Source of the DNA: a virus
Lineage: Duplodnaviria > Caudoviricetes
Virus record (IMG/VR): IMGVR_UViG_2857398645_000001
DNA length: 64,000 nucleotides
Reading direction: 5' to 3' (one strand)
Part shown: positions 25,517-54,231 of the stretch, one piece after another
Position numbering within the stretch: the first letter of the stretch is position 1
How the letters are laid out: every line of letters begins with the position of its first letter
Translations under genes and position numbers: made by a program
Notes under the pieces: generated by a model
The model's database searches: none
Told to the model about the DNA's origin: nothing
Seen by the model: the letters and a program-made list of their open reading frames with translations, nothing else

Positions 25517-26119
25517 ATGACGCAGTACATTTACGCCATGTTCTTCATGAGCGGATGGTTCTCCTGGTGGGACACTGCGGCATACGGACCCAACATCGCG
25601 GGCGGATTAGCGGGTGGGTTGGTGGGAGGTTTGATCGCGTTGGCGATCGCCTTGCTCGTGTCAAAACGAGAGGTTAAACAGTACGAAAATCAGCGAATCG
25701 CCACCCGGATAGATGCGCTACGGCGTAGTATCGTGGACGAATTCGCTATCGCATGTGACAGGCTCCTAAACTCCTCACCAGCCGAGTGTGAGTCTGCTTT
25801 CTACCGAGCCAACCATGCAGCCACCGAGGTTCTTCTTGCTCTCAGGGAGATTAGACCCGAGACGCAGAATTTTCAATGGTTCGATCAAGAGTGGAAATCG
25901 GTCCACGAAATCTATGAACGTCAGCTGATCCTCGCAAGGGTTGTTGCGAAAGATGCGCGCACTCCCGTTGTTGTGGAGCCTTTGAAGTCTGACGAGCTGG
26001 ACAGGGCAACAGGATCCTTGACCCGTTTGACGAATGCCTGCCACCGGTGGGCGCTTCAGCCAGTCGAGCGGTGGAGCCCACCCAGAGACCCCAAGGCAGA
26101 CGAAATCGAGCGTTCGTGA
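25517..26119 (+). CDS. Membrane-anchored hypothetical protein (low-GC moron)
   Basis: N-terminal hydrophobic helix and helical body; opposite strand. Confidence 0.6.
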   Translation: MTQYIYAMFFMSGWFSWWDTAAYGPNIAGGLAGGLVGGLIALAIALLVSKREVKQYENQRIATRIDALRRSIVDEFAIACDRLLNSSPAECESAFYRANHAATEVLLALREIRPETQNFQWFDQEWKSVHEIYERQLILARVVAKDARTPVVVEPLKSDELDRATGSLTRLTNACHRWALQPVERWSPPRDPKADEIERS

Positions 26120-27321: not shown

Positions 27322-28242
27322 CTATCGGGCGGGGTCGGGCCACGCTTCGAGGTCGGCGAGCGCGGCGGCGGCCTGCTGGGGGACGACCCCGTTGCCCAGA
27401 GCGTGGCGTTGGGCGGAGTAGGACAGGCCGGGCACCCCCGTCACCCACCCCTCGGGGAGTCCCATGAACCACTCCAGCCACCGCATGGACAACCGCGGCG
27501 TCCGGGGGCCTTGTTCGGCCGGGTAGGGGGCGGGGCGGCCTACGACCTGTTCCCACCGCCGGATCGGGGTGTGGAAGCGTCCCCATAGGTCGGGGTCGTG
27601 TACCCCCTCGCCGCTGAGGCTTCCAGCAGGGACCGGATCTGGTGTGTCACCCACACCTGGCTTCCCTTCGCTCTCATCTCCTGCTCGGGGCGGCCCCACC
27701 CGCTCTCCGAGGCGCAGGGCGTCGACAGCAACGACAAAGACGCGGGGGCGCTGGTGGGGCGCGCCAGCGTCGGAGGCGCGCAGAACCCGCCATCGTGGTA
27801 GAAACCCATGCTCGGCCAGACCGTGAACGACGCGTCGCATCGCTTCTCCCTGGTTGGCGGTGAACAGTCCGCGCACGTTTTCGAACACGAGCCGTCGCGG
27901 GCGTTGGGGCAGTTGCTGGATTCCGTTGAGGATGAAGTCAAAGATCCACCGTTCGTCGTCGATCCCGCCCCGGCGGCCGGATAGCGAAACCGGCTGGCAG
28001 GGGAACCCGGCGGTGATGATGTCGACCGGGGGCGTGTTGGCCCAGTCGATGCTGTGTAGGTCGCCGAGGTTCGGGGCGGGGTAGTTGTGCGCGAGGATGG
28101 CCGCGGGTCCGGGTGCGGGGTCGGCGACCCACGCCGTCCGTGCTCCGTAGACCTGTTCGGCGGCCATGTCGAGGCCGCCGTAGCCAGTGCACAAACTGCC
28201 GATGAGCGGTGGTTGAGCTGGTTGGTTCAAGCGGTTCCCCAC
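27322..28242 (-). CDS. DNA cytosine-C5 methyltransferase
   Basis: LCTGYGG, GFPCQ, ENV, HQRPRVF, LGNGV motifs. Confidence 0.93.
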   Translation of the reverse strand: MGNRLNQPAQPPLIGSLCTGYGGLDMAAEQVYGARTAWVADPAPGPAAILAHNYPAPNLGDLHSIDWANTPPVDIITAGFPCQPVSLSGRRGGIDDERWIFDFILNGIQQLPQRPRRLVFENVRGLFTANQGEAMRRVVHGLAEHGFLPRWRVLRASDAGAPHQRPRVFVVAVDALRLGERVGPPRAGDESEGKPGVGDTPDPVPAGSLSGEGVHDPDLWGRFHTPIRRWEQVVGRPAPYPAEQGPRTPRLSMRWLEWFMGLPEGWVTGVPGLSYSAQRHALGNGVVPQQAAAALADLEAWPDPAR

Positions 28243-30401: not shown

Positions 30402-30566
30402 ATGCCTAGCACCCGAACCACTACCCGCCCCGCCCACCACCCCAGAGCAGCCGACTGTTCCAACTGCGGTGGAAGCGGCGTGGTGTGGGTCGAGCAGGAC
30501 GGCGCCGGGAAATGGAAGAAAGAGGCGGTGACATGCCCGGTATGCAACGGAAGCGGGGTGGTCTAG
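30402..30566 (+). CDS. Zinc-ribbon RiPP precursor (cysimiditide / type II pamtide-like), 54 aa
   Basis: AGGAGG RBS; MPSTRTTTRPAHHPRAADCSNCGGSGVVWVEQDGAGKWKKEAVTCPVCNGSGVV; stop overlaps PIMT start. Confidence 0.82.
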   Translation: MPSTRTTTRPAHHPRAADCSNCGGSGVVWVEQDGAGKWKKEAVTCPVCNGSGVV

Positions 30567-31690
30567 TGGGAAACGCGAACGACGCGCTGTACGCCCGCCA
30601 CACCAACCTCGTCGCCGAACTCGACACCACCGAGGAGATCCGCACCGCGTTCAACGCCCACCCCCGGCACCACTTCATCCCCGACCTGATCTGGCCCACC
30701 GCCATGGGGCCGCCCGTGAGCCGCGACGCCAACCCCGACGCGTGGGCCGAGACCGTCTACCGCGATGATGCGGTTACCACGCAGACCGAGGGAACCGGAA
30801 GCGTGAACGTGCCGACGTCCTCATCATCGGCGCCCCAGGTCATGGCCGACATGATCCGAGCAGCCGGGGTGCGCCCCGGCATGCGGGTGCTGGAGGTCGG
30901 CACCGGGACCGGGTGGAACGCGGCGATTCTCGCCGAACTCGTCGGCACCGGGGGCAGCGTGACGACGGTCGAGGTCGACCCGGGCGTCGCGGACGCCGCA
31001 CGCCACCGGCTCGCCGGCACCGGAGTTCGGGTTGTCACCGGAACCCGGCCCCCCGGCACCGGCGAGTTCGACGCGGTCCTGGTGACCTGCGCTGTCACCC
31101 GCATCCCCGACGCGTGGGCGCTAAGCGCCGCTCCCGGCGGGGTGATGGTGCTGCCGTGGGCGCCCGCACCCCACGCCGAAACCACACCCATCGCCGCGCT
31201 CAGCATCGACGGGCACCGGTGGTCCGGCGCTTTCATCCGCGAAGGGTCGTTCATGCGGTGCCGCGACCAGCCCCGCCGTGTCGGCCGGTTCCCCGGCATA
31301 CAGGCGACGCCCCAGGCTTCCGGTGTGTTCCCCGCGACCTCCGAGGAGCTGCTAGAAAGCGACCTCATGACACCGCTCATGCTGACGCTGCCCGGTCTGC
31401 GGTTCGGGGTGGGCATGCGCCCGTTCAACGGCGACCCCCGCACCATCGTCTATGTGGGCGCACCTGACGGTTCCTGGGCGTATGTGTGGCCAGACGCGAC
31501 CGTGACCATGGGCGGGCCGACCCCTGTCGCTGAACGCCTCGACGCGGCGTACCGCCAGCTCACCGGCTCTGGGGCGCGGCTGGAGGAGTTCCAGCTCGAA
31601 GCCGGTACCGGTGCCGCGTCCTACCGGGTCGTGCTCGACGGTGTCGGCAGCTGGGATTACCCCGTTGCGCGGTTCGACCAGGCCGAGTAG
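30566..31690 (+). CDS. PIMT-family O-methyltransferase with C-terminal extension (RiPP type)
   Basis: PRHHFIP, SSSSAP, VLEVGTGTGWNAA, GSFM, GSWAYV motifs. Confidence 0.88.
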   Translation: MGNANDALYARHTNLVAELDTTEEIRTAFNAHPRHHFIPDLIWPTAMGPPVSRDANPDAWAETVYRDDAVTTQTEGTGSVNVPTSSSSAPQVMADMIRAAGVRPGMRVLEVGTGTGWNAAILAELVGTGGSVTTVEVDPGVADAARHRLAGTGVRVVTGTRPPGTGEFDAVLVTCAVTRIPDAWALSAAPGGVMVLPWAPAPHAETTPIAALSIDGHRWSGAFIREGSFMRCRDQPRRVGRFPGIQATPQASGVFPATSEELLESDLMTPLMLTLPGLRFGVGMRPFNGDPRTIVYVGAPDGSWAYVWPDATVTMGGPTPVAERLDAAYRQLTGSGARLEEFQLEAGTGAASYRVVLDGVGSWDYPVARFDQAE

Positions 31691-31987: not shown

Positions 31988-32044
31988 GGGAGTTCCTAGC
32001 CAGAGAGAAGACGGGGGCGGGTGTGCCGCCCCCGCGCGGGCTCA

Positions 32045-32509
32045 TCAGTGCTCGATGTCGCCGTCGAGGACGGCTTGTGCCTTCTCCAATCGCGTCCGTG
32101 CCACACGCAGCTCTGCCCGTGTTCTGGCGAGCACAGCGGCCTGCTCCTCCTCCCGCTCGGTGAGGGTTGCGATTCGGCGCGTGTACTGGGCGACACGGTC
32201 CTTCGCGACAGCCGTGCTCGGCCGACGTGGAGCACGCGGTCGGTCGTCGCCTCTCGGGCCGCCGCGCGGCTTCTCCTTCTGACGGCGGGCGAACTCCTCG
32301 AACTCCGCTCGAACCACCCACTTGGTGGGTCGCATGGCCCCGTTATCCACTTCCATGACGATCTTTGGGAAGTTGGGGTGGCGGCTGATCCAGTTCGAGA
32401 GAGCAGCTCGGGTGACTCCGGCGTCACGGGCAGCTTGGGCGAGGTAGGTGAGCTCGTCCTCGCGCCCCTGGTATTCGGGGCGGTACCAGGTGACGTGGGG
32501 GCTGTGCAT
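32045..32509 (-). CDS. HTH plus coiled-coil protein
   Basis: LAQAARDAGVTRAALSNWISRHPNFP; RBS GAAGGA. Confidence 0.65.
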   Translation of the reverse strand: MHSPHVTWYRPEYQGREDELTYLAQAARDAGVTRAALSNWISRHPNFPKIVMEVDNGAMRPTKWVVRAEFEEFARRQKEKPRGGPRGDDRPRAPRRPSTAVAKDRVAQYTRRIATLTEREEEQAAVLARTRAELRVARTRLEKAQAVLDGDIEH

Positions 32510-32574
32510 CGTGTGGTCCTTCCGTGGGTTGGTGGGGGCCGGGTTTCCCGTCCCGGCCCCGTGTGGAGTGCGGT

Positions 32575-32724
32575 TTAGATGCGGCGGACGGGGATGCCTG
32601 CCTTGGTGATGGGGGGCTCCTCGGTGTAGTGGTCGGTTTCATCGTCGGTGTTGTAGGCGGCGGCCAGTTCGTTCTCGGCGCGGGCGGCGGCTGCGTCGGT
32701 GATGGCTTCGTAGTAGTCGTACAC
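32575..32724 (-). CDS. Small acidic protein, 49 aa (not in ORF track)
   Basis: GAAAGA RBS; MYDYYEAITDAAAARAENELAAAYNTDDETDHYTEEPPITKAGIPVRRI. Confidence 0.6.
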   Translation of the reverse strand: MYDYYEAITDAAAARAENELAAAYNTDDETDHYTEEPPITKAGIPVRRI

Positions 32725-32798
32725 GGTTCGTCTTTCGGTGTGGGGCTAGTAGGGCTTGGTGGGGGCGGGGGTGATCCCCCGCCCCGGTTCGCTGGGGG

Positions 32799-33053
32799 TT
32801 ATTCGCCTTCGGGTTCTTCGTGGATGAGGGCGCCGCACTTGTCGCAGTCCACGCGCGTTCCGGGGTCGATGTTCCACGGGTAGATCTCGCCGAGTTCCTG
32901 GTTGGCGTCGGCGAGCCGCTGTGCTTCGTGGTGGGGCATGCAGGTGAGGCACATGGCGTGGCCGTTCCAGTCGGTGTAGGCGATGGTGGGGTCGGCGCGG
33001 AGGTCACGGAGGGTGGCGGTCAGCTGTTCGGCGGGGGTGGTGTGGTTGTTCAT
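32799..33053 (-). CDS. Small CxxC-containing protein
   Basis: GAAAGGA RBS; CLTC and CDKC. Confidence 0.7.
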   Translation of the reverse strand: MNNHTTPAEQLTATLRDLRADPTIAYTDWNGHAMCLTCMPHHEAQRLADANQELGEIYPWNIDPGTRVDCDKCGALIHEEPEGE

Positions 33054-33178
33054 CTCGGTCCTTTCGGGGTGGTGTTGGGGCGGGTTCCCGTTCCGCTCCC
33101 AACACCCCAAACACTACACGAAACTACGCACAAGTCAAATCATCGTGTTGCCCTCCGACCCCGCCGGAGGGCGGCGCC

Positions 33179-33388
33179 CTACAGCTCGGAAAGGACCTCT
33201 TCAGGCGAGAACCCGGCCGCGTCGCATACCAGGCCGAATGCCGCTTCGGCGTCGCGGTAGGCGGCGACCGCACCCCAGTCGGGAGCGAATCCACGGTGTG
33301 CTGCCTGGCAGGCGCGGCGCATCGCGTCGTGGGCGTCGGAGATGGAGCGGTATTCGGTTTCGGTGAGCTGGTCGAGGACGCCGGACAT
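33179..33388 (-). CDS. Small acidic helical protein
   Basis: GAAAGGA RBS downstream of repeated promoter. Confidence 0.7.
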   Translation of the reverse strand: MSGVLDQLTETEYRSISDAHDAMRRACQAAHRGFAPDWGAVAAYRDAEAAFGLVCDAAGFSPEEVLSEL

Positions 33389-33539
33389 GCGGTTCCTTTC
33401 GCGGTTGGTGGTGCCGGGTGGGGTTCCCGTCCCTCCCGACACACCAAATACTACACGAAACTACGCACAAATCAAAATCCGTGGGGGAAGGAAAGCCGCC
33501 CCGGCACCACCGGAGCGGCCACACCCGACCCAGACCCGA

Positions 33540-34520
33540 TCAGTCCCCCCGCACCACCTGTTCGATCTCCTCCGCCGACGCACGCCCGCGCACCCTGTCA
33601 TAAGGCAGCGTGTCCGTGATCAGACGCCCATTCGCCTTCCGGCCACGCGGGTTAGCGTGAGCCTCCTCCCAGGTGTAGACACGGCTACCCGTGATCCACA
33701 GGTGCGCCCACGGGATGCTCAGCGACTTCTTGTTCACCCGAAGCACCGGCACCCACTGCCCCCACACCTTCACGTAGTCGCCCTTCGTGAAGTCCTCGGG
33801 CCGCCACACCTTGACCCCCGCCGCTTCGGCCTGGGCGACGTGATCCCGCCAGTAGGCCAGCTCGTCACGCAGCTGGGCGAGGTCGGCCCGCCAGGACGCG
33901 CACGTCTCGGTGTACTGAAAATCGCGCAGCAGGCGGCGCTCCCGCTCCTCCAACCGCTCGATACGCCGCAGCGTCGCCGGGACGCTCTCCCGGAACCGGC
34001 GGCCCTGTTCGGCGGCGGCCTGCTTTCCATCCCAGTAGGACGCTTTACCGGCCTCCCGGTGGGCCCGGTCGTCGGTGGCCATCATCTTCTTGTGGAACGA
34101 GCGCGCCCGGTCGCTGATCAGCGGCTGGCCGATCGGCCATCCCTCGGCCATCTCCTCGAAGCGGGAACGGGCCGCGGCCGATTTCTCGGCTGCCCGGGAG
34201 CGGTAGGTCGCGGCGCGCTCGGCCCGCGCCTCGGCGCGCTCGCTGTTCTCGGCTTCGGCGTCGGCGAACGCCCGCCCGGGGGTGGCGTTGTCGACCTCGA
34301 CGGTGACGGCGAATCCTGCGTCGCGCAGTCGCCGCGCGGCGTCGTCGACGCGCCAGGAGGCGGCCTTGTCGCGGGACCGGGGCACGTACCAGCCGGGGCC
34401 GTCTGGGAGGTTGCGAGAGAACCAGAAGCCTGCCGCTTTGAGATGCTGGTCGGTGCCGTCGCCCCGGGCGGTTCCGTCGGCGATGGTCCCGTCTGCGCGG
34501 GTGTGGCGGATGGTGATCAC
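33540..34520 (-). CDS. DUF3560-like protein
   Basis: ITIRHTRADGT, WYVPRSRD, PIGQPLI, RRIERLE, RVNKKSL motifs. Confidence 0.75.
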   Translation of the reverse strand: MITIRHTRADGTIADGTARGDGTDQHLKAAGFWFSRNLPDGPGWYVPRSRDKAASWRVDDAARRLRDAGFAVTVEVDNATPGRAFADAEAENSERAEARAERAATYRSRAAEKSAAARSRFEEMAEGWPIGQPLISDRARSFHKKMMATDDRAHREAGKASYWDGKQAAAEQGRRFRESVPATLRRIERLEERERRLLRDFQYTETCASWRADLAQLRDELAYWRDHVAQAEAAGVKVWRPEDFTKGDYVKVWGQWVPVLRVNKKSLSIPWAHLWITGSRVYTWEEAHANPRGRKANGRLITDTLPYDRVRGRASAEEIEQVVRGD

Positions 34521-34584
34521 AGTGTGTCCTTTCGCGGTTGGTGGTGTGGGGCCGGTTTCCCGTCCGGCCCCCGTTGTGCGGGGG

Positions 34585-34869
34585 TCAGGCGATGGCGTCG
34601 AGCGCGTCGTCTTCGGCGATCCCGGCGGCCTGGCAGGCGCGGCTGAAGGCGAGCCGTGCGGCGGCCCAGGTGCGGTCCCACCCGGTGGGTGAGGGAACGT
34701 CGGGGTCGGCGAGCAGGGTGGTCGAAGCGGTGAGCTCGCACAGCTCGTGCGTGGTCCGGATGATCTTTCGCTGCTTGGGGGTGAGCCGTTCCCACGCGGC
34801 GGCCGCCCTGTTCGTTTCGGCGGCGCGGAGGGCTGCGGCAAGGGTGTCGACGGCGTGGCTGGTGTGCAC
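34585..34869 (-). CDS. Hypothetical protein
   Basis: GTG start after a GC hairpin and AAGGG. Confidence 0.6.
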   Translation of the reverse strand: MHTSHAVDTLAAALRAAETNRAAAAWERLTPKQRKIIRTTHELCELTASTTLLADPDVPSPTGWDRTWAAARLAFSRACQAAGIAEDDALDAIA

Positions 34870-34931
34870 GGGGGCGCCCTTGGGTGTTGTGGCGGGGGCC
34901 GGGGTTGTGCGCCCCGGCCCCGGGGCGGCGG

Positions 34932-35198
34932 TTAGAGGCACATGACGTCGCTCATGTCGAAGGGGATTCCGGCCGCCTCTGCGGCTTCCTGGGCGGCGGC
35001 GACGCGGGTGTTGAGGCCTGCGAGGACGGCGAGCTTTTCGGCGTCGGTGGGGGCGGGGCCGTCTGCGTTCATGCGGCACCAGTAGGCGCGGGCCTCGGCG
35101 AGGGCGTCAAGGTAGGCGCCGTGGGGGCCGTGGATGATGGCGAGGACGAGGGTGCCGTCGGTGTTGGCGGTCATGGTGAGACCTGCGGTGGTGTCCAT
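34932..35198 (-). CDS. Hypothetical protein
   Basis: GAAAGGA RBS after repeated promoter. Confidence 0.7.
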   Translation of the reverse strand: MDTTAGLTMTANTDGTLVLAIIHGPHGAYLDALAEARAYWCRMNADGPAPTDAEKLAVLAGLNTRVAAAQEAAEAAGIPFDMSDVMCL

Positions 35199-35284
35199 GG
35201 TGGTCCTTTCGGTGGGGGTGGGGGCGGTTTCCCGTTCCGCCCCCGAACAAGAACAACTCTACACCAAACTACGCACAAGTCAAA

Positions 35285-35662
35285 TCATTTGGTGTGGCGA
35301 GAATCCCTCAGATTCTCCGCGATCGCCAACAGCTCGCGGAACAACAGGCAGGCGTTGGCCCCCGCGAAGACATCACCGCTGCGCAGGTAGGCCAGAGCCG
35401 CGTTCTGCATGCGGATGTGCAGCGCCAGGGCCTCGATAACCAGTTCGTCACCGGACTCGCCAATCCCCACGGAGCGGCGGGCGGCGAGTCGGGCGTAGAT
35501 GCCTTCCAGGGTGTCGTTTTCGATGCCACACATGGCGTCTTCCATGCCGGGCAGGTAGATGCCGAGCCGGGTGGCGGCATCGCGGGCGATGTACATGGCG
35601 CAACCCTGGCCGACGCAGGAGGCGTAGCGGACGGCGTTTTCGGGGGTGCTGTCGAAGCCCAT
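35285..35662 (-). CDS. Hypothetical protein
   Basis: GAAAGG RBS after repeated promoter. Confidence 0.7.
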   Translation of the reverse strand: MGFDSTPENAVRYASCVGQGCAMYIARDAATRLGIYLPGMEDAMCGIENDTLEGIYARLAARRSVGIGESGDELVIEALALHIRMQNAALAYLRSGDVFAGANACLLFRELLAIAENLRDSRHTK

Positions 35663-35815
35663 CGGGGGTGCCTTTCGTGGTAGTCCTTGGCGGCCGGCGC
35701 GGGGTTCCCGTCCCGTTCCGACACCAACCACTATACACGAAAACACGCACAAATCAAAACACTTGGGTGGAGAAAAGGGCGACCCCGGCCACCCACCGGA
35801 CACCGCCCCCAACCA

Positions 35816-36409
35816 TCACCCCGAACGCTTGCCCTCCCCCGCCTTCCCCCGCAGCCAAAACCCCGCCTGCAACTCATCCACCCGCCCCCGGCGCCACCTC
35901 TCTACCCGATCGGCTCCCACCTCACCCGGCTCCCACAACCCCGAAGACCTGCGGTAGCGCATGGTCGACTCCGGAGTGCACGGCGCCAGGTACGCGCACA
36001 CCCCCTCCCACGTCAACATGTCCTCAGGCGACCCCACCGGGTCCGGAACGTTCTGCACCCGCCGCCGCACCCGGTCCAGCCCCTCCTCGGGGAACGTCGC
36101 CTTACGGTCGCGCTTGGGCCCGGGCTGCGGCCAGATGTCCGCGTGCTCGCGCGGCCACCGCTCCAGGGTGCGCGGCGACAGGCCGTGCTTGGCCGCATAC
36201 TCGGCGAGGGTGACCCACCCGGGGACGATGCCGCGCGCCTCGTCCAGCGCCTGGGGGTCGAAGAGGGGTTCCCCGCCCCGCTCCCCGACCGGTTCGGGCA
36301 GGGTCTTGTGGCGTTTGAGGGTGCGCCGCAGCTTCTCGGGGTCCAGTGGCTTCTCGGGGTCGGGGCTGCGTGCTGCGGCGTACTCAGCGAGGGTGACAAG
36401 CTGTACCAT
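35816..36409 (-). CDS. Tandem winged-HTH (Xis/MerR-like) DNA-binding protein
   Basis: VTLAEYAA repeated twice plus third unit LTWEGVCAYL..ESTMRYRRS. Confidence 0.65.
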   Translation of the reverse strand: MVQLVTLAEYAAARSPDPEKPLDPEKLRRTLKRHKTLPEPVGERGGEPLFDPQALDEARGIVPGWVTLAEYAAKHGLSPRTLERWPREHADIWPQPGPKRDRKATFPEEGLDRVRRRVQNVPDPVGSPEDMLTWEGVCAYLAPCTPESTMRYRRSSGLWEPGEVGADRVERWRRGRVDELQAGFWLRGKAGEGKRSG

Positions 36410-36573
36410 GGCAGGCGTCCTTTCGTGGGACACGGGGCGGCCGAGTTTCCCGCTTCCAGCCTGCGGGCTGGTCGCCGGTCCTGGACCGGTAGAGGCCGCC
36501 CCACTCTTGCTCTTATGCGCCAGCGGCCCGCCCCCGGTATGTCGGGGCGGGCCGCGCGCTTTCTTCCTTACTT

Positions 36574-37059
36574 CTACACGTGGTCGGTGATCTGTTCCAA
36601 TCGGTCGTCCCAGTAGGCGGCCTCATCGGCGTCCGGCCACCCGGAGAAGGCGGCCACGGCCTTGGCGCGGGAGCGGGCCGAAGCCATCACCGCCTCGACA
36701 CAGCGGTTGATGTTCCGCCCGTAGGGGCTGTTCCACCATGGGATGATCGCGCGGACTCCGAGCGCGGACGCGGCCTCCGAGGTGTCGCGCATGGCGCGCA
36801 CCAGGACGGGGTGGAGGTCGGCGGGGAGCCCGGAGTTGCGGTTTTCGAGTTTTTCTAGGGCGCGTTCGACACGGTGGCAAGCGTCGTCCAAGTCGCGGAA
36901 TTTCGCCGTGTTGGGGTCCAGCCGGGGCAGGTGGATGGCTTTGGGGATGGTGGAGAGCATGTCCCGGACGGCGGGGTAGAGGTCGGAGGCCCAGAGGCGG
37001 TGGAGGCGCTGGAGTTCGTAGTCGGGGGCGGTGGTGAGGTCTCCGGGCCAGATGGTCAT
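36574..37059 (-). CDS. Hypothetical protein
   Basis: GAAAGGA RBS after repeated promoter. Confidence 0.7.
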   Translation of the reverse strand: MTIWPGDLTTAPDYELQRLHRLWASDLYPAVRDMLSTIPKAIHLPRLDPNTAKFRDLDDACHRVERALEKLENRNSGLPADLHPVLVRAMRDTSEAASALGVRAIIPWWNSPYGRNINRCVEAVMASARSRAKAVAAFSGWPDADEAAYWDDRLEQITDHV

Positions 37060-37145
37060 GCTGTGGTTCCTTTCGCGGTTGGTGGCGCCGGGTGGGGTTC
37101 CCGTCCCTCCCGACACACCAAATACTACACGAAACCACGCACAAG

Positions 37146-37562
37146 TCAAACCACGTATTCGGGTGTCGGCCCCACACGCGCCTCCCAGCGGCCCAACATC
37201 ACCCCGACCTGCCCCGCGTGCGCCGCGAAGTCCCGCACACACCACGGCGCCCCCGATCGGGAGTAGGCCGTGTACTGCGTGGCCGCCGAAACCCACTCCC
37301 GGGCGGCCGCCTGCAGGACCACGGTCACCCACCAGCGCCCATCGGCGGTGTGCGCCTCGGCGACCTTGTCGGCCGCCCGCCAGACCAGGGCCTGCCAGCG
37401 GAACACGTCGACGTCGCTGCGCGCCTCGGGGGCGCCGAGGTGGATGCCGTGGGCGGCGAAGGCCCGGACGAGGGTGCGCAGGGTGCCGGCGAGTTGGTCT
37501 TCCATGTCTGCGAGCTGGGCGTGGCGGCCGGGGCGTTCCGGTCGTGCGTGGTGTGCGGTCAT
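37146..37562 (-). CDS. Hypothetical protein
   Basis: GGAGGA RBS after repeated promoter. Confidence 0.7.
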   Translation of the reverse strand: MTAHHARPERPGRHAQLADMEDQLAGTLRTLVRAFAAHGIHLGAPEARSDVDVFRWQALVWRAADKVAEAHTADGRWWVTVVLQAAAREWVSAATQYTAYSRSGAPWCVRDFAAHAGQVGVMLGRWEARVGPTPEYVV

Positions 37563-37635
37563 GGGGTCCTCCGTGGGGTTGGTGGTCGGGGTTCCCGTCC
37601 CGACACACACCACCTTACACGAATCCACGCACAAA

Positions 37636-37848
37636 TCAAACAGGGTTGGGGGTTGCCAACCGCCACCCCTCACCCGTCGACACGAACCGCACCCCCGGCA
37701 GCTCACCAACCCCCAGCCCCGACACCGTGCACAGCACTCCGGCCGGGACCATGACGGGGTCCCCGATCGGATACTCCACCCCCGAGGCCACGCCCGTCAG
37801 CTCAGCAGCATCCCCGTCGACCATCGACACCTCGAACACATCACTCAT
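37636..37848 (-). CDS. Hypothetical protein
   Basis: ORF follows the endonuclease gene; plausible beta-rich composition. Confidence 0.45.
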   Translation of the reverse strand: MSDVFEVSMVDGDAAELTGVASGVEYPIGDPVMVPAGVLCTVSGLGVGELPGVRFVSTGEGWRLATPNPV

Positions 37849-37858
37849 GATCCAAAGG

Positions 37859-38743
37859 CTAGCCGCCACAAGGCGCATCCAAGCGCCGCGCACGCACGGC
37901 GGCGAACAGCCCAGGGTCCCACCCCGCCCGCTGCGCCCGCTCCACCGTCTTCGCATAACACTTGCCCATGTCCGGGTAGACCAGCCCCAACCGCACCGCC
38001 GGAGGATGATCCAGGTAGCCCGCCCACACGCACCCCGCGACGTGCGGGCACTCGTCAATCCAGGCGTTGCAGTGACAGCACAGCAGCCCCCGGACGAGCC
38101 CGGTGAACGGGTCGTGGTCGACGAATTCCCCCGGCCCGCCGCACGCCGCGCACCCCGGCCCGAACTCCTCCGCCAGCGCCCGCCGGGCTCTCCCCCGTGC
38201 ACCGGCGCCACCCAGCCACATGGGCCACACAACAAGGCATCGGGCGGGGCACCGCCGCTGTGGCGGCACCAGGGCGGCGTCGACCGGCTCACCCACCGGA
38301 CGGACCTTCCAGGCAAGGCTGCGTCTACGGCCCTCGCTCCCAGGCGGAGGATGGACGCGGTAGCAGGTACCGTCCGTCCACCAGCAGATGTGCTGTTCGT
38401 GTTTCCAAGGGGCATCCTGGCGGGCGCGCACGGGCCGGTGCCCGCACACCATGCGCCCCTCATCCCACAGGTGGAAACGGCCATCGTCGCCCGCAATAGC
38501 GCGCGGGGCAACACTGCCCCCACTGCGGACCGGGCAGGCGTAGACCGACGACTCCCGCACCCACGCGTCCAGCCCGGCCTGATCGAAGGTGAGCGCGTAT
38601 CGCCACACCAGCAGAAGCCGCCGGTGCTCGGGGAGAGCATCGAGCCCGCGCGGCACCGCGCCAGGGATCGGATTCCGGGCGGCCGGCGCATAGGAGGGCG
38701 GCGCGGCCACGATGCGGTCGGGGGCCATCCGGCCGCCCATCAC
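37859..38743 (-). CDS. Protein with C-terminal endonuclease VII-like domain
   Basis: CAAC..VDHDPFTGLVRGLLCCHCN. Confidence 0.75.
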   Translation of the reverse strand: MMGGRMAPDRIVAAPPSYAPAARNPIPGAVPRGLDALPEHRRLLLVWRYALTFDQAGLDAWVRESSVYACPVRSGGSVAPRAIAGDDGRFHLWDEGRMVCGHRPVRARQDAPWKHEQHICWWTDGTCYRVHPPPGSEGRRRSLAWKVRPVGEPVDAALVPPQRRCPARCLVVWPMWLGGAGARGRARRALAEEFGPGCAACGGPGEFVDHDPFTGLVRGLLCCHCNAWIDECPHVAGCVWAGYLDHPPAVRLGLVYPDMGKCYAKTVERAQRAGWDPGLFAAVRARRLDAPCGG

Positions 38744-39429
38744 ATGTCGGCCTTCTCGCACACCTCGCCCGCGCACGCCAGCACGAACGGCCACCGCCAC
38801 GGCGTGCCCGCCCCGCGCGCGTGCGCATCGTAGGGGTACACGCGGTACCGGCCGCCCCACCGGCGGCACAGCAGCATCACGGCTTCCTCGATCTCGCCCT
38901 CCGCCGGGTCATGCATCTCAGAGCGGAACACCACCCCCACATGCCCGTGTGGTGCTGTCACCGTCCACCGGGACAACGGGAACACGTCGCGCGTCTGCCG
39001 GAACCCGATCTCCCGCCCAGGCCGGAACCCGTGGTTCTCCTCGAACCCGTCCCAGAACTCGTTAACTTCACGCAGGGGATGGTCTGCGTAATCGTGGTGG
39101 ATCGCCCCCGGGGACATCTTGAAGGAGTGCGGCTTGCCCACTGCCCGCCCCAAGTAGTCGGCTTGCGCGGTCAGAACGATCCGGGCTCCGCCTTCCGCAG
39201 GCACGTCGACACCGTCCATGGGGCCCGCAACGATGGTCCACATTCCATCGCCGGAGGGGCGCGCCCACGCCGTGGACGACACCGCGGTGAAATCCTCACC
39301 AGGGGACCATGTCGGGGCGCCGAACTGGGCGTGGGGCAGGACCACCAGGACCTCGAAACGGTCGACGGGGTCGTGCGGGTCAGCGGCCTGTGCCGCTCGG
39401 GTGAGGCGTCGGCGCAATCCTCTACGCAT
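38740..39429 (-). CDS. Hypothetical protein
   Basis: Coupled to downstream gene; plausible composition. Confidence 0.6.
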   Translation of the reverse strand: MRRGLRRRLTRAAQAADPHDPVDRFEVLVVLPHAQFGAPTWSPGEDFTAVSSTAWARPSGDGMWTIVAGPMDGVDVPAEGGARIVLTAQADYLGRAVGKPHSFKMSPGAIHHDYADHPLREVNEFWDGFEENHGFRPGREIGFRQTRDVFPLSRWTVTAPHGHVGVVFRSEMHDPAEGEIEEAVMLLCRRWGGRYRVYPYDAHARGAGTPWRWPFVLACAGEVCEKADM

Positions 39430-39689: not shown

Positions 39690-40208
39690 TCAGTCGTTGG
39701 GGAGCGCGTCCATGTAGATGAGGTCGCACGGGCGGTGGCCCCAATACCCCCCGCGCCTGATCACCCCAGCCCTCTTAAATCCAGCCTTCTCGTAAGCGCT
39801 AATAGCACTGGCATTGGGCTCCAAAGCCTGAAGCCAGACGCATTGCCGACCTGCGACCCCGAACGCGTAATCAAGGGCCAGCCGAGTCGCCATTGCGGCA
39901 TACCCATTCCCCCGGGCTTCTGGAGCAATGATCAGGTGGTACTCGGCCGTCCTCACAACGTCGTCATTATCGAACCTCACCATACCGACAGGCGTTGAAT
40001 CGGCGGTGACCAGCTCAAAAGAATGGGTGTCCCGCTGAGGGTGGTCCCATCGCATCTCGTAGCGGTCAAGTGTAGGGGGGAACCGGTTCCCGAAACCCCG
40101 AATGGTCTCGCTGTCGGATATCCACCTGTGGTAGACGGGGATCATTTCCTTACGCGACACGGCAAGACTCAGAGGGTTTCCCGGGTATACGATAACGGGT
40201 TCGTCCAT
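39690..40208 (-). CDS. GNAT acetyltransferase (RimL/SpeG-like)
   Basis: ARGNGYA, LDYAF, NASAISAYEKAGF motifs. Confidence 0.88.
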   Translation of the reverse strand: MDEPVIVYPGNPLSLAVSRKEMIPVYHRWISDSETIRGFGNRFPPTLDRYEMRWDHPQRDTHSFELVTADSTPVGMVRFDNDDVVRTAEYHLIIAPEARGNGYAAMATRLALDYAFGVAGRQCVWLQALEPNASAISAYEKAGFKRAGVIRRGGYWGHRPCDLIYMDALPND

Positions 40209-40310
40209 ATGGTGCCCCTGTTTCGCGCGAGTATTCAAGTTACTCATGATGGTAGCACAGCGCCAAAAAATGACCCGTTTCACCCTGACACATCCGGGAA
40301 GAATCCGCTC

Positions 40311-40454
40311 ATGGGTGACCTTTCGCATGATCATGGGGCATCATTCAGCGACCAGGGAAAACATGACGGGACGCCCAAGTTCTGCGACCACTGCGGCGCT
40401 GACAACTCTGTCATGAGTATTAACTGCCGAAAGTGCGGCCGACCACTGCCGTAG
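40311..40454 (+). CDS. Small zinc-ribbon peptide, 47 aa
   Basis: FCDHCGADNSVMSINCRKCGRPL; followed by an inverted repeat; weak RBS. Confidence 0.5.
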   Translation: MGDLSHDHGASFSDQGKHDGTPKFCDHCGADNSVMSINCRKCGRPLP

Positions 40455-40799: not shown

Positions 40800-41125
40800 C
40801 GGTGTCCTTTCCCCGCGGCCACGAGAGCGGCCGGGGCCGCGCCGCCGCCTGTCTCGGTGTCTCCCGCGGTTCGGGATCGGTGTTCGGCCCGCAGGGATGC
40901 CGCGCGCCGGTTTTGGCCTTCCAACGCGACCCGCAGCGCCCCCAGACCGACCGCCCGCACCTGGTCATACAGCCCCGGTGTCTCGTACCACGGGGCGTCC
41001 AACGGCGTTCGCCGCTGGGCGACGCAGAGCAGGCCACCGGCTATCCGCTCCGTGCGGATCGTCCAGTCGGGGTAGTCGCGTCTGAGCGCGGCCAGCTCGG
41101 TCTCGTGTTCCGTTGGGGCGTTCAC
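40796..41125 (-). CDS. Small protein, paralog family (LRRDYPDWTI)
   Basis: Coupled operon; motif shared with neighbours. Confidence 0.65.
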   Translation of the reverse strand: MNAPTEHETELAALRRDYPDWTIRTERIAGGLLCVAQRRTPLDAPWYETPGLYDQVRAVGLGALRVALEGQNRRAASLRAEHRSRTAGDTETGGGAAPAALVAAGKGHR

Positions 41126-41382
41126 CGTTCCGGCCTTGAGAGCTCAGCGTTGCCCCGGAGGCCTTCTCTCAGCGCCTCCTGGACGCACAGCTTGTCTTCT
41201 AGGGTGCTGAGGTCGGGGGCGGGTAGTTCAGTGTGGACCTGGCCCCACTCGGCGGCCGGGTTGCGGGGCTCGGTGCGGTGCACCGCGCGCAGCAGCCCGC
41301 CGGGCTCGGGGGTGATCTCCCAGTGCTGGCCGTGCTTGGCGCGGACCTCCTCGAGCAGCACATCAGTCGTGGGGGATGCCAT
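41122..41382 (-). CDS. Small protein, paralog family (VRAKHGQHWEI)
   Basis: Coupled operon; motif shared with neighbours. Confidence 0.65.
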   Translation of the reverse strand: MASPTTDVLLEEVRAKHGQHWEITPEPGGLLRAVHRTEPRNPAAEWGQVHTELPAPDLSTLEDKLCVQEALREGLRGNAELSRPER

Positions 41383-41385
41383 GGG

Positions 41386-41616
41386 TCACCGCTCCTTCTC
41401 CAGCAGCTCCCGCAACTCGTCAGCGGTAGCCGCGCTGAACTGCGCGGCGTCGGCGAGGCGCTGGGAGCACCACGCACCCGGGGTCATGTCCTCGCGGGTG
41501 GCCCGCCAGATGAGGTGGTCGTCGTAGCGGACCCGTAGGAGCCGCAGCTCGGTCTCGTCCTCGCTCTCGCCGGGCCACGCGTGGAGGGTGTGGCGTCGCT
41601 CCTGGCGGATCGTCAT
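41386..41616 (-). CDS. Small protein, paralog family (LRVRYDDHLIW)
   Basis: GGGAGGA RBS; AATADELRELL ending. Confidence 0.65.
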   Translation of the reverse strand: MTIRQERRHTLHAWPGESEDETELRLLRVRYDDHLIWRATREDMTPGAWCSQRLADAAQFSAATADELRELLEKER

Positions 41617-41673
41617 GTGTCCTCCCTTGTCGTCGGGGTGTCGCCGACGCTACGCAGGCAAAGGGAGGAAACC

Positions 41674-41777
41674 CAGGTACAAGGTGTACGGTTCTTGGTC
41701 TCAGACGACGGCCGACCCGTACAAGGTGTACGGGTCGGCCTTTTCGATCATCGTGACCCGTACAAGGTGTACGGGTC
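41674..41777. promoter_or_regulatory. Three palindromic operators CCCGTACA-AGG-TGTACGGG
   Basis: GTAC cores at 41677, 41719 and 41760 (42 and 41 bp spacing). Confidence 0.8.
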
Positions 41778-41785
41778 TTCGGCTG

Positions 41786-42994
41786 CTATTCGCTGCCCTG
41801 CATGCCCTGCCCCTCCGACACCGCCTCGGCCATGCGCCGCAGCGCCTCGGGCAGCTGTGTCTTGCGCGCCGCCAAGTCAGCGACGACGGAGTTGGCGACG
41901 CGCTGGTGCCGGAACCACTCCGGACTGATGCTGTAAGCCCGGTCGGCGACCGCGATCGCCTCATCCACGCTCCGCCGCCGCTCCAGCGCCGCCGCCTCGT
42001 TCAGCGAGTGTCGGGCGTAGCTGATCGGGAAGAGCGCCCGGGGGTCCACCCGCGCGGACGCCTCCAGCGCCTTGCCGGGCTGGTCGGCGGCCGTCCACAC
42101 GTGCGCTTCCTGCATCGCCACACTGGTCGGCCCGAAACTGACCCAGTAGTCGTGGCGGTCCTCACCCATCAGCTCCGCGCCCGCCCGAGCCCGCGCCAGA
42201 TACTGCTGGGCGTCGTCGTGCCGCTCCGCTGCCCCGGCCACCACCGCCGCGTGCAGCAGCTGCCCGCCCCACGCCGTGAGCTGGCGGCGGTCGGTGGTCG
42301 ACCACGACGGCTCGATCGACTCCGCAGTGCGCACCGCCAAAGACTCGGCCTGGTGGTGGCGCCCCATCCGCAGCAGGATCCAGGTGTAGGTGCCGTACAG
42401 GGTCGCCAGCCGGTATTCGTCGTCGCCCTCGGTGGCGGCCTGGATCCCGCGCTCCGAAGCCAGGAGGGACGCATCATCCTTGCCGGTGTGGATCATCAGG
42501 CACGCGGCGAGCTGGTAGGCGTGGGCGTAGGCGGCCGCCACCGGGCCCGGCCCCAGTGCGTGGCGGGTGACCCGGCACTCGGCCAGCAGGTTCGGCAGCG
42601 CGCAGGCGAGCGCACCGAAATGCCCGGCGAAATACGCCCCGTAGGCGCGCTCGACCTGGCGCCACAGCTCGCCCGGGTCGCTGGGCTCCCCGTCCTCCTC
42701 GTCCATGCCGGGCAGCAGCGCGGGGTCGCTGACCGCATCGCGCACCGCGAGCACCCCGGCCTCGCCGACACGCTGCACCCGGTTGGACTTGCCGACGAGC
42801 ACGGACAGGTCTTCGTCGAGGCCGCGGGCGATCTTGGTGAGGCTGGTGAGCTTCGCGGTCTTGCGCGAGCCGCGTTCCAGCTTGGAGATGAGTTCCACGG
42901 AGACCCCGGAGCGGCGCGCGAGCTGGGCTTGGGTCATGCCGTGGTCGGTGCGAAGCTTCCGGAGGCGGGGGCCGATGCTGATAGTGTCGTCCAT
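41786..42994 (-). CDS. XRE-family regulator with C-terminal TPR-like domain
   Basis: GMTQAQLARRSGVSVELISKLERG; SFGPTSV and SPEWFRHQ motifs. Confidence 0.9.
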   Translation of the reverse strand: MDDTISIGPRLRKLRTDHGMTQAQLARRSGVSVELISKLERGSRKTAKLTSLTKIARGLDEDLSVLVGKSNRVQRVGEAGVLAVRDAVSDPALLPGMDEEDGEPSDPGELWRQVERAYGAYFAGHFGALACALPNLLAECRVTRHALGPGPVAAAYAHAYQLAACLMIHTGKDDASLLASERGIQAATEGDDEYRLATLYGTYTWILLRMGRHHQAESLAVRTAESIEPSWSTTDRRQLTAWGGQLLHAAVVAGAAERHDDAQQYLARARAGAELMGEDRHDYWVSFGPTSVAMQEAHVWTAADQPGKALEASARVDPRALFPISYARHSLNEAAALERRRSVDEAIAVADRAYSISPEWFRHQRVANSVVADLAARKTQLPEALRRMAEAVSEGQGMQGSE

Positions 42995-43077
42995 GGATTG
43001 AGCCCGTCCTATCTGTCAGTGGCACTGTCAGGATAGGGCGGGCTTTTCCACGTGTCAGGGGAGTGTCGTCGCCGTGA

Positions 43078-44199
43078 CTATCCGGGCGCCGCGTGGGTGA
43101 GCGGGCGGTCGGGGTTGTCGAGCCATACCTGCTGGCCCTCGGCGGTGACGGTCAGGCCGAACCGGTCGTGTTCAGGGCGGCCCGCCTTGAGCCACCACGC
43201 ATAGGCGGCCGCCAGCTCGTCGAACAGCGACCGCGGCCCGTGCTGGCGCACACGGTACTCCCGGACCGTCTCCGGGGTGATCCGCCAGGACGCCCACGAC
43301 CCCGATTCGGGATCCATCAGGTAAACAGTGAACCGGCCATCGGAGACCTCACCGTCGTGCACCACGGTGGACAGCATCCTTGGCACCCGCAGGCCGACCG
43401 CGAACGACGCGTCGAAGTCCGCGACCGGCTCATAGGGGTGCAGGTCGGTGACGGACTCGACGAAGTCGTGGCCGGGCAGCACCCGGTCCTCCACCGCACC
43501 GTGCGGGGTGCGCTGCGCGCGGACCCACATGAACCCGGCGTCGCCGCCGAAGCGGCCCTGCGCGGACCCGTCCGGCCCGACGTCGAGCCGCAGCAGCGTC
43601 CCGTTGTGGAACGCTGTCCCCCATGGGGTGACGATTCGCCCTCCGGGCTGGGCCTGGGCCACCCACGTGTGGGGCACCTGCTGCACTGCGGCCGTGGAGA
43701 TCACCCTGTCGTAGGGTGCGCCCTCGGGCCATCCGGCCATCCCGTCACCGGCGACCACCTGCGGGTGGAACCCGGCCGCAGCGATGCGCTCGCGCGCGGT
43801 CTCGGCCAGGTCAGGGTCGACTTCTATGGTGGTGACGTTCTCCTCGCCCAGGCGGGCGCACAGCAGCGACGCGTTCCACCCCGTGCCAGTGCCGACCTCC
43901 AGGACCCGGTGCCCCTCCTCGGCATTCAGAGCGTCCAGCATCATCACGACGATCGACGGTTTGGACGCCGAGGAGGACACATAGCCGTCCCCCGATCCGG
44001 TGCCGTCGTCGAGCTGGGTGATGACGGGGGCGTCGGCGTTGGCGAGTTCAGCCCACCGGGCAGGGTTGGTCGCCCGGTCGACAGGGCGGCGCTGCCCATC
44101 CCACACCTGGTCGGGGATGAACGCGACGCGCGGCACCCGCTCGAACGCTTCGCTCCACGCTGGGGGCACCTGGTGCGGTTCGAGGAGGGGGGTGGCCAC
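43078..44199 (-). CDS. PIMT-family O-methyltransferase (imiditide-type)
   Basis: VPRVAFIP, TQLDDG, SSASKP, VLEVGTGTGWNA, AGFMWVRAQR, GPRSLFDELAAAYAWW..RFGLTV. Confidence 0.92.
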   Translation of the reverse strand: MATPLLEPHQVPPAWSEAFERVPRVAFIPDQVWDGQRRPVDRATNPARWAELANADAPVITQLDDGTGSGDGYVSSSASKPSIVVMMLDALNAEEGHRVLEVGTGTGWNASLLCARLGEENVTTIEVDPDLAETARERIAAAGFHPQVVAGDGMAGWPEGAPYDRVISTAAVQQVPHTWVAQAQPGGRIVTPWGTAFHNGTLLRLDVGPDGSAQGRFGGDAGFMWVRAQRTPHGAVEDRVLPGHDFVESVTDLHPYEPVADFDASFAVGLRVPRMLSTVVHDGEVSDGRFTVYLMDPESGSWASWRITPETVREYRVRQHGPRSLFDELAAAYAWWLKAGRPEHDRFGLTVTAEGQQVWLDNPDRPLTHAAPG

Positions 44200-54145: not shown

Positions 54146-54190
54146 GGGGTCCTCCGTGGGGTGGTGGGCGGGGGTTTCCCGTCCCCCGCT

Positions 54191-54231
54191 ATGTATATAC
54201 ACAATAGCATCATCTCTGTATATACACAAAC
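54191..54231 (-). promoter_or_regulatory. Promoter TTGTGT-17-TATTGT with two TGTATATACA palindromes
   Basis: Read directly; divergent from the RHH gene. Confidence 0.8.

Follow-up and report, generated by a model that had tools for sequence, protein, structure and literature searches.

A promoter-like repeat and an invariant-loop leader hairpin precede the accessory small genes of an actinomycete prophage

Introduction

Why are small phage genes that bear no relation to one another preceded, again and again, by the same intergenic sequence? The question is raised by an array of twelve genes (g2 to g13; 32.0-37.9 kb, minus strand) in the 64,000-nucleotide stretch of IMG/VR record IMGVR_UViG_2857398645_000001 that we analysed (the window). 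The window, whose source genome is of high GC content and comprises 5.94 Mb in two contigs, is mostly the siphovirus prophage of a high-GC actinomycete, with its genes on the minus strand. An initial annotation, made from the sequence alone, had described the region as an array of cassettes, each behind a copy of one promoter. We find that six copies of a promoter-like repeat are each followed by a hairpin whose loop is invariant and whose stems covary, and that the same hairpin also occurs apart from the repeat. It is fairly probable that the repeats constitute a composite promoter-leader expression module of the phage accessory small-gene region, similar to the PeSL cassettes of T4-like phages. 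The new part is the covarying hairpin with its invariant loop, and the module is known from one prophage.

Six copies of a promoter-like repeat

When the window was searched for TTTGAYTTGTGCGTRG with up to two mismatches, six matches were found, all on the minus strand (33124-33139, 33461-33476, 35269-35284, 35743-35758, 37135-37150 and 37625-37640). Only 0.05 were expected, and none of 100 shuffled sequences reached six. The six copies of a -35/-10 pair that had first been noticed are thus confirmed. Their positions designated the same units, but had been given as plus-strand left edges, and the minus-strand orientation of all units had gone unmentioned. The same six are the only copies in the whole 5.94-Mb genome, where a profile search scored them at 23.8-31.1 bits and the next match at 7.4 bits.

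The copies, named P1 to P6 from the lower coordinate, all lie on the minus strand. P6 (37612..37640) reads TTTGATT...TAAGGT, P5 (37122..37150) TTGACT-16-TAGTAT, P4 (35730..35758) TTGATT-16-TATAGT, P3 (35256..35284) TTGACT-16-TAGAGT, P2 (33448..33476) TTGATT-16-TAGTAT and P1 (33111..33139) TTGACT-16-TAGTGT. Read along transcription, the aligned consensus of the six units is TTTGAYTTGTGCGTRGtTTCGTGTAnnnT, with a -35 element TTGAYT, a 16-nt spacer and a -10 element TAnnnT in every copy. Each copy is found on the coding strand, 60-75 nt ahead of a start codon. At the sequence level, this is the arrangement of a housekeeping-sigma promoter (-35 TTGACN, spacer of 16-18 nt, -10 TAnnnT, placed before a gene), and reading the six repeats as promoters is well supported. 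A seventh, decayed promoter at about 36575-36600 was considered and rejected; CGTGTAG is all that it has in common with the unit, and the profile gives no match there.

Pairwise identity among the six units is 74-94% over the 31-nt promoter part and 46-70% over the leaders, except for P2 and P5, whose leaders are 92% identical. The promoter part, including the spacer, therefore appears to be under tighter constraint than the rest. The spacer (TGTGCGT..TT.GTG) is nearly invariant, and seven consecutive bases, TGTGCGT, are fixed in all six copies. Because housekeeping-sigma promoters need no fixed spacer sequence, the spacer probably also carries a putative regulator site.

Two genes end inside the unit that follows them, which had been taken as a sign that units were joined at the promoter edge. 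The stop codon of 37636-37848 is indeed the TGA at 37638-37636, within the TTTGA of P6, and that of 37146-37562 the TGA at 37148-37146, within the TTTGA of P5; a third gene, 35285-35662, ends directly before the TTTGA of the next unit. The motif, however, has stops in all three frames (TGA, TAG, TAG) amid GC-rich DNA, so that an abutting open reading frame (ORF) stops in it whatever its frame. The overlap is thus not diagnostic of joining at the promoter edge, and we give it little weight.

A leader hairpin with an invariant loop

Every promoter copy is followed by a GC hairpin and then by a CA-rich spacer and a Shine-Dalgarno (SD) site. In full, the order within a unit is promoter, U/G-rich tract, GC hairpin, CA-rich tract CACCACCAACC, GAAAGGA or GGAGGA, and start codon. 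The conserved hairpin was not remarked upon in the initial annotation, and it is also present away from promoters. The sequence ACGGGAAMCC occurs nine times in the window, always on the minus strand (0.58 expected): six times after the repeat promoters, twice in intercistronic gaps that have no promoter, and once after the main early promoter at 54.2 kb. The loop, ACGGGAA(A/C), is invariant. The stems differ yet stay complementary, as in GCGGGGG/CCCCCGC, GUCGGG/CCCGAC, GGGGGCGG/CCGCCCCC, GGGGCCGG/CCGGCCCC and GGGGCCGGG/CCCGGCCCC.

A covariance model built from the nine hairpins found exactly these nine, at 37.7-53.7 bits, with the next match at 21.3 bits. All are on the minus strand. Those behind the repeat promoters are at 37574..37615 (P6; loop ACGGGAAC; 41.0 bits), 37080..37121 (P5; loop ACGGGAAC, extended stem UUGGUGUG/CACCACCAA; 52.1 bits), 35688..35728 (P4; 37.7 bits), 35211..35252 (P3; stem GGGGGCGG/CCGCCCCC; 41.8 bits), 33406..33447 (P2; 53.7 bits) and 33067..33108 (P1; 42.0 bits). 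The two promoter-less copies occupy the gap between g8 (34585-34869) and g9 (33540-34520), at 34539..34580, and the gap between g12 (32575-32724) and g13 (32045-32509), at 32527..32568, and both score 46.4 bits. The ninth (54159..54199; 41.4 bits) lies between the main early promoter/operator region, which it follows directly, and the first early gene (53882-54145); its ACGGGAAMCC is at 54173-54182, and the region upstream contains three TGTGTATAT repeats.

In the model alignment, changes on both sides were seen in 5 of 8 stem pairs, and 79% of the pairing cells were paired as against 64% in shuffles. The covariation score was 0.257, with a shuffled mean of 0.054; none of 500 shuffles reached it, and slid partners scored at most 0.090. 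These values come from nine sequences, of which P2 and P5 are near-duplicates, in an alignment fitted to the model. Minimum free energy folds gave the hairpin with its 8-nt loop for every copy (8 of 9) but the P3 leader, whose 8-bp stem was found by direct scan. The folds leave the SD unpaired or weakly paired, and in those of the P1, P2, P4, P5 and P6 leaders the stem is extended, with UUGGUGUG pairing with CACCACCAA. Counted from the -10 element, the expected start site falls 1-5 nt before the stem, or within its foot, for P1, P2, P5 and P6; for P3 and P4 the core stems start a few nucleotides further downstream, and the extended stems earlier. From these predicted positions, the RNA would start with a 5'-terminal hairpin.

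The habit of placing a hairpin before the ribosome site extends to the whole array. Of the gaps between g2 and g13, 11 are at least 60 nt long, and in each of them a GC hairpin stands ahead of the SD. The loop is ACGGGAA in eight, CGCACAA in another and AUCA in a further one; the remaining gap has a junction variant containing GCGGGAAAC. The variant is the leader of g5 (36420..36500, minus strand), which has no repeat promoter and is predicted to form a three-way junction closed by GGGGCGGCC/GGCCGCCCC, with GCGGGAAAC unpaired. The loop CGCACAA belongs to the leader hairpin of g8, at 34889..34920 on the minus strand, and the loop AUCA to that of g12, at 32757..32792 on the same strand (stem GGGGCGGGGG/CCCCCGCCCC; 14.8 bits). 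An Rfam scan of 32000-38500 returned no family; the sole sub-threshold match, isrK, scored 19.8 bits against a gathering score of 50. Since the hairpin is also used without the repeat promoter, in two gaps and behind the main early promoter, it appears to be a separate RNA element of this phage. We conclude that the covarying, invariant-loop hairpin marks the predicted 5' leaders of the phage's early transcripts, and that it is without a described counterpart.

The region that precedes the ninth hairpin (54146-54304) is a divergent control region in its own right, between the first early gene (minus strand) and 54305-54571 (plus strand), whose 88-residue product is ribbon-helix-helix-like by eye. 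TGTGTATAT(A/G)C occurs in it three times, in two cases as TTGTGTATATACA at a spacing of 26 nt, and the leader hairpin comes immediately after this region. These repeats are probably the operator set of the lysis-lysogeny switch.

Search for relatives

A blastn search with 32400-38900 against 50,697 phage records gave no match, and neither did a tblastn search of phages with the DUF3560 protein encoded by g9. The promoter pattern was found in none of 400 other genomes of the family, and the exact pattern had no match in viral contigs. A looser, 15-base pattern matched 97 viral and at least 117 metagenome loci, all of them single chance matches in which the motif was not extended; the DNA at these loci has 20-63% GC. 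The hairpin-leader pattern matched six viral loci, again all by chance. As a single query the DUF3560 protein found no locus; in the form of an alignment it found 80 loci, none with the promoter or with more than one hairpin core, and no comparable repeat is present in the nearest of them (L010). With the two further genomes of the genus, the common matches were of 33-38 nt only, and the portal protein had a single match, 41% identical, among 200 genomes of the family.

The regulator of the XRE-TPR type encoded upstream of the array has a copy with 86% amino acid identity in a 41-kb IMG/VR record (L306/G401), and three more distant records were found; the array is not shared by any of the four. 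Similarity to L306/G401 stops at about position 40890 of the window, and the remainder of that record has nothing in common with the window. Because the similarity is confined to the regulator module, the phage is, judged by its sequence, a mosaic.

Possible recombination between units

The near-identity of two leaders reported initially was borne out: 33388-33476 and 37062-37150, that is, the units of P2 and P5, are 96% identical over 89 nt. They share an exact run of 49 nt, and in all other pairs the longest run is at most 23 nt. The promoter parts of P2 and P5 differ at the same polymorphic sites as the other copies, a patchwork of the kind expected from short conversion tracts. An exchange between P5 and P2 would remove 3,674 bp (g4 to g9) or release them as a circle.

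Among the phage's gene products are an annealase, a RusA-like resolvase and an EndoVII-type nuclease. The first of these, the Rad52-like protein that the initial annotation had invoked, is a single-strand annealing protein of the Rad52/Sak type (53013-53810, minus strand; phrog_3290, E 8e-42). Gene shuffling by recombination between units is therefore plausible, given that one pair of units is identical over a run of 49 nt and that the phage has a gene for a single-strand annealing protein. An integron-like system was rejected. Family scans of 80 ORFs against PHROGs, 40 of these also against Pfam, revealed no integrase family, and the cassettes carry their own promoters; the scans were of protein families and did not extend to the attC R-box.

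A proposed promoter-leader module and its alternatives

We favour, as fairly probable, the view that the stretch is the accessory small-gene part of a leftward (minus-strand) early/middle operon in which a composite module is repeated. Its parts would be a promoter of the host housekeeping-sigma type, a GC hairpin, a CA-rich unpaired spacer, and a strong SD site with its start codon. Host RNA polymerase would initiate at each copy, boosting transcription along the operon, and the 5'-terminal hairpin would shield the RNA end and insulate the ribosome site from upstream sequence. Each gene would thereby get the same start context. The invariant loop may be the docking site of a postulated protein or RNA partner. 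The six promoter copies may have come from local duplication or recombination, the P2/P5 pair having perhaps exchanged recently, and the module would be a ready substrate for gene gain, loss and shuffling, as with PeSLs in T4-like phages.

Several observations weigh against this view. Just three of the six promoter copies were flagged by a generic sigma-70 scan (0.5 promoter-like sites expected per 12 kb), the spacer of 16 nt is one below the usual optimum, and both promoter activity and start site are predictions from sequence. The case for the structure is covariation among just nine sequences, two of which are near-duplicates, and the fold energies are mostly unexceptional for the GC content (z +0.7 to -3.5). 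The docking partner of the loop is a postulate. No relative with the promoter-hairpin module turned up in the phage, viral, metagenome and family-genome searches. The contigs of two DNA runs of one sample, which drop rare variants, have no joint, deletion or loose end in 32000-38500, and the sole mappable mosaic breakpoint (about 40890) lies away from the promoter repeats.

The fixed spacer could also mean that the 29-nt unit is primarily an operator. A repressor or activator would bind TGTGCGT..TT.GTGTA and switch the six units together, and the hexamers would be secondary. This is unlikely, though a serious contender, and it is compatible with the composite module. It would explain why TGTGCGT is the same in all six copies, when the spacer of a sigma-70-type promoter is free to vary in sequence, and why the promoter part is so much better conserved than the leaders (74-94% vs 46-70%). 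Proteins with helix-turn-helix (HTH) motifs are encoded in or near the array (g5, g13 and the 402-residue XRE-TPR regulator), the early region of phiC31 also has two separate repeated intergenic motifs, and analogues would be the stoperators of Cluster A mycobacteriophages and the conserved inverted repeats of phiC31. However, neither dyad symmetry nor a clear direct repeat is seen in the unit, and its sequence is unlike the TGTGTATATACA repeats found in the switch region of this prophage. All copies are on one strand and lie 60-75 nt ahead of a start codon, as fits a promoter, and the binding protein is hypothetical. The unit could also be a phage-specific middle promoter that needs a phage-encoded factor (sigma-like, appropriator or activator) and would be silent with unmodified host polymerase, as with the T4 middle, T7 and phiC31 early promoters. 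Conservation is continuous over some 29 nt, unlike that of a plain sigma-70 site, the motif is nowhere in the host genome outside the six copies, and these are confined to one late-early region. Yet the scanned ORFs gave no match to a sigma factor or RNA polymerase family, the hexamers match the housekeeping consensus well, and the same leader follows the main early promoter region, a region that has to be readable by the host. We regard such factor dependence as improbable.

Other alternatives concern the hairpin. It is quite improbable that it acts as an attenuator, or as an antitermination site of the nut/put type, where transcripts would halt or pause unless a loop-binding phage factor modified the polymerase. 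The nutL and put sites do lie directly after promoters, as this hairpin does, including behind the main early one, and the loop is conserved. A U tract, however, follows the hairpin in none of the nine copies, and two copies sit inside operons without a promoter. Lambda nut has a boxA, a boxB with a 5-nt GNRA-like loop, and an N-like protein; here the loop has 8 nt, no boxA-like partner and no small, arginine-rich N-like gene were seen, and the first early product is acidic. The hairpin could instead act as DNA, being a recombination or nicking site, extruded from duplex DNA or exposed when single-stranded, whose invariant loop would be recognised by a structure-specific nuclease such as the adjacent EndoVII-type protein, in a site-specific cassette system like an integron or the target of an HUH nuclease. 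Stems that vary around a constant loop characterise attC sites and the single-strand hairpins that HUH nucleases recognise, and an EndoVII/HNH gene is directly upstream of the array. A protein that targets a GGGG...CCCC stem-loop is also an idea raised in one of the PeSL papers (PMC2839356). Against this are the scanned ORFs, which include no integrase, HUH or transposase family, the location of all nine hairpins on the transcribed strand at a fixed distance before the SD, the copy behind the main early promoter, where a cassette boundary is unexpected, and the lack of joints in the contigs of the two DNA runs (which drop rare variants). We assign this a very small probability. Finally, the repeats might be passive, functionless remains of local duplications, since all lie within 4.6 kb and two of them are almost the same. 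But the flanking genes are unrelated, which excludes duplication of whole segments, and hexamers, spacer, loop and SD are kept and stems covary where the rest drifts to about 50% identity. This last idea is scarcely credible.

The composite module also has a bolder version, to which we give rather little credence. The hairpin would be an undescribed cis-acting RNA element of an unsampled actinophage lineage, read by a dedicated factor of phage or host; together with its private promoter, it would form an expression cassette for excision, circularisation and swapping of accessory genes by the annealase and the EndoVII-type nuclease, with the P5xP2 pair as a currently active substrate. Such a phage would have gene shuffling of the PeSL kind although it is temperate and of high GC content.

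If the module works as proposed, accessory-gene organisation and exchange of the PeSL type would extend beyond T4-like phages of Gram-negative hosts to temperate actinomycete phages. It would also be a compact native unit of promoter, 5' hairpin and ribosome site for expression in high-GC actinomycetes. The invariant loop, moreover, would point to a specific RNA-binding partner.

Comparison with known systems

The PeSL (promoter-early stem-loop) cassette of T4-like phages is the closest described analogue of the module. PeSLs combine strong sigma-70-like promoters with stem-loops, often a run of G followed by a run of C (GGGG...CCCC), and are spread over hyperplastic regions beside orphan ORFs (Arbiol, Comeau and Krisch, 2010, PMC2839356; Comeau et al., 2014, PMC4122927). 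As these accounts describe them, the stem-loops were shown to terminate transcription and the PeSLs to recombine with one another, yielding mini-circles (PMC2839356; PMC4122927). A stem-loop downstream of the -10 box is one of five positional subclasses (PMC2839356). On that description, both systems have a repeated composite intergenic motif of about 100 nt with a sigma-70-like promoter and a G-run/C-run stem-loop. In both, it is clustered among small, mostly orphan genes, with one copy per gene or small group, and the similar stretches are of a length that would allow homologous recombination by functions that the phage itself encodes. Here, a sigma-70-like promoter is found in 6 of 6 repeats at the sequence level, and a stable, covarying stem-loop downstream of the -10 box in 6 of 6.

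The differences are as clear. There is no sequence relation. PeSL stem-loops are reported to terminate, whereas no U tract follows any of the nine hairpins here, and separate terminator-like hairpins precede P2 and P4 only. Also, this is a temperate siphovirus of a high-GC actinomycete, whereas the phages described with PeSLs are virulent myoviruses. The present hairpin would be a 5' leader after the start site, has an invariant loop and is also used apart from the promoter, unlike the PeSL stem-loop as reported. Shuffling and mini-circles are described as demonstrated for PeSLs, whereas the present module is known from the sequence of one prophage.

Stabilising stem-loops at the 5' end of mRNAs from bacteria and phages are exemplified by ompA, and pairs of a promoter with an RNase III site by T7. 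The likeness lies in a hairpin at or near the 5' end before an unpaired ribosome site, repeated between cistrons in a long phage operon; those elements, however, need no fixed loop sequence. Like the present phage, phiC31 is temperate, has an actinomycete host and carries a conserved intergenic motif in several copies ahead of early genes. In record AJ006589 (24000-38400) we found 5-6 copies of CCCGGGTTGCCGACTYCCTTAC, a motif of 22-28 nt about 50 nt before genes 9a, 11, 12, 13 and 25; the palindrome CCTACTCACGTGAGTAGG is present there at least seven times, and neither motif is annotated in the deposited record. Ingham, Wilson, Smith and co-workers, between 1993 and 1999, reportedly described repeated motifs of phiC31 as early promoters and conserved inverted repeats as repressor operators, and we take the CCCGGGTTGCCGACTYCCTTAC and CCTACTCACGTGAGTAGG motifs to be these. 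In phiC31, however, the copies span the whole early region and stand before replication genes, and the motif is unlike a sigma-70 promoter. Its consensus CCGGGTTGCCGACTYCCTTAC has no match in the window at up to three mismatches, and we know of no leader hairpin with a conserved loop in phiC31.

Among actinobacteriophages, those of Cluster K carry SAS and ESAS elements, one-stranded repeats at the translation starts of some non-structural genes with a suspected role in expression (Pope et al., 2011, PMC3203893). An inverted repeat is found just upstream of the SAS in about half of the cases (PMC3203893). Both systems thus have repeated, one-stranded motifs linked to gene starts. As described, however, the SAS contains no promoter, and the ESAS combines conserved 17-bp arms with a variable spacer, whereas here the arms vary and covary and the loop is invariant. 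The 13-bp SAS GGGATAGGAGCCC had three matches in the window at two mismatches (2.4 expected), none of them in the array. In the Gordonia phage CaiB (cluster DR, 68.6% GC), one repeated leader precedes six genes (PMC9302106). According to this genome announcement, it has TGTTGT, GCGGGA, ACCCGCTC and an SD-like GAGAGGAC at fixed distances (PMC9302106). The layout is very similar, a U/G-rich tract being followed by a GCGGGA...CCCGC hairpin and then by a ribosome site, but the sequence is another, and the announcement describes no promoter and no structure analysis. Intergenic repeats that carry promoters are also reported for the halovirus HF2 (PMC8707807).

Genes and layout of the array

The gene calls g2 to g13, all on the minus strand, are supported by a frame plot of GC by codon position. 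g2 (37636..37848; 70 residues) belongs to no family, and the same holds for g3 (37146..37562; 138 residues), which is behind P6; an atlas look-up linked g3 to unnamed 'hypothetical' actinobacterial clusters (score 0.89), a lead only. g4 (36574..37059; 161 residues), behind P5, matched itself alone among 5.8 billion protein clusters. g5 (35816..36409; 197 residues) has two weak excisionase/HTH-like repeats, below the cut-off. g6 (35285..35662; 125 residues, behind P4), g7 (34932..35198; 88 residues, behind P3) and g8 (34585..34869; 94 residues, GTG start) have no family. g9 (33540..34520; 326 residues) encodes a DUF3560 protein (E 8e-13), whose closest relatives are about 50% identical and labelled Nocardiopsis proteins by their sources. 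g10 (33179..33388; 69 residues), behind P2, has no family, nor has g11 (32799..33053; 84 residues), behind P1, whose product has two CxxC pairs, zinc-ribbon-like by eye. g12 (32575..32724; 49 residues) also lacks a family, and g13 (32045..32509; 154 residues), the last gene of the array, has by eye an HTH-like N-terminus and a coiled coil. A plus-strand ORF at 36743-36979 was rejected as a gene, as its GC1 is below its GC2 and the minus-strand frame fits better.

For nine of the twelve genes there was no match in Pfam, PHROGs, NCBIfam or PADLOC, and no paralogue of an array gene was found elsewhere in the genome. The genes are indeed unrelated to one another, the best pair in an all-against-all BLASTP comparison having E = 0.075. 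The earlier count of one to three genes per promoter copy also holds: from P6 to P1 there are 1, 1, 1, 3, 1 and 3 (g3; g4; g6; g7-g9; g10; g11-g13). That these are small genes behind a promoter copy is true of most; g9, however, with 326 residues and DUF3560, is not small, and g5 (35816-36409) has no promoter copy. The small genes had been put forward as anti-defence candidates. As they match no Pfam, PHROG, NCBIfam or PADLOC family, this finds no support; the results speak neither for nor against an anti-defence role of array genes, which is pure conjecture.

The array is made up of P6-g3-P5-g4 with a closing hairpin, followed by g5 with its terminator, and then by P4-g6-P3-g7-g8-g9 and P2-g10-P1-g11-g12-g13, each closed by a terminator. 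The structures concerned are all on the minus strand. After g4 there is a strong GC hairpin (36517..36559; z -3.9), with no U tract on that strand. Terminator-like hairpins follow g5 (35775..35810; then UUUUCUCC), upstream of P4, and g9 (33494..33520; 12 bp, then UUUCCUU; z -2.2), upstream of P2. Another, after g13 (32011..32035; z -2.6), closes the array. The other four promoters adjoin the preceding ORF without significant structure between.

The prophage around the array

Going down in coordinate, the prophage carries genes for a replication initiator, a DnaC-like loader and SSB (56-58.7 kb), the divergent control region (54.15-54.30 kb), the gene for the annealing protein and then exonuclease, RNA ligase and methyltransferase genes. 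The XRE-TPR regulator (402 residues; 41786-42994) and a GNAT gene (39690-40334) come before the Endonuclease VII/HNH-type gene (37859-38869, minus strand; start codon uncertain), which is immediately upstream of the array. Downstream of the array, as far as position 101, are the genes for a C5 methylase, HNH, terminase, portal, capsid, tail, tape measure and endolysin. The array is thus situated at the end of the early/middle region, between recombination and regulator genes and packaging genes. Lambdoid phages carry their nin genes at the corresponding place.

The XRE-HTH + TPR regulator (phrog_5823, E 2e-124) has an HTH-TPR layout that recalls peptide-sensing regulators. It is followed by three copies of a 23-bp palindrome, GACCCGTACAAGGTGTACGGGTC, at a spacing of 41-42 nt (41672-41777), and then by two genes whose products have 87 residues each. 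The module at 40890-43087 alone is 83% identical in nucleotides and 86% in amino acids to the otherwise unrelated 41-kb record L306/G401; since the identity is limited to the module, it appears to move as a unit.

Two paralogous PCMT-like methyltransferase genes are on opposite strands, at 43078-44199 (minus) and 30485-31690 (plus) (phrog_13505, E 6e-111 and 5e-54), and a C5 cytosine DNA methylase is encoded at 27322-28242. The large terminase ORF (20669-23401; 910 residues) matches primase and DnaC-like P-loop families over residues ~90-320, and its terminase match is limited to residues 442-904; it may be a fusion or have a miscalled start. The GC content falls to 0.58 at 4001-6000 and 0.62 at 62001-64000, compared with about 0.68-0.70 elsewhere. 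The first of these intervals covers ORFs 4420-5280 and 5277-5837, which lie among tail genes and have no PHROG match. The interval 24001-26000, just upstream of the small terminase gene and near HNH and HTH genes, has a GC skew of +0.23 and an AT skew of -0.29, and may be a packaging or origin-like region.

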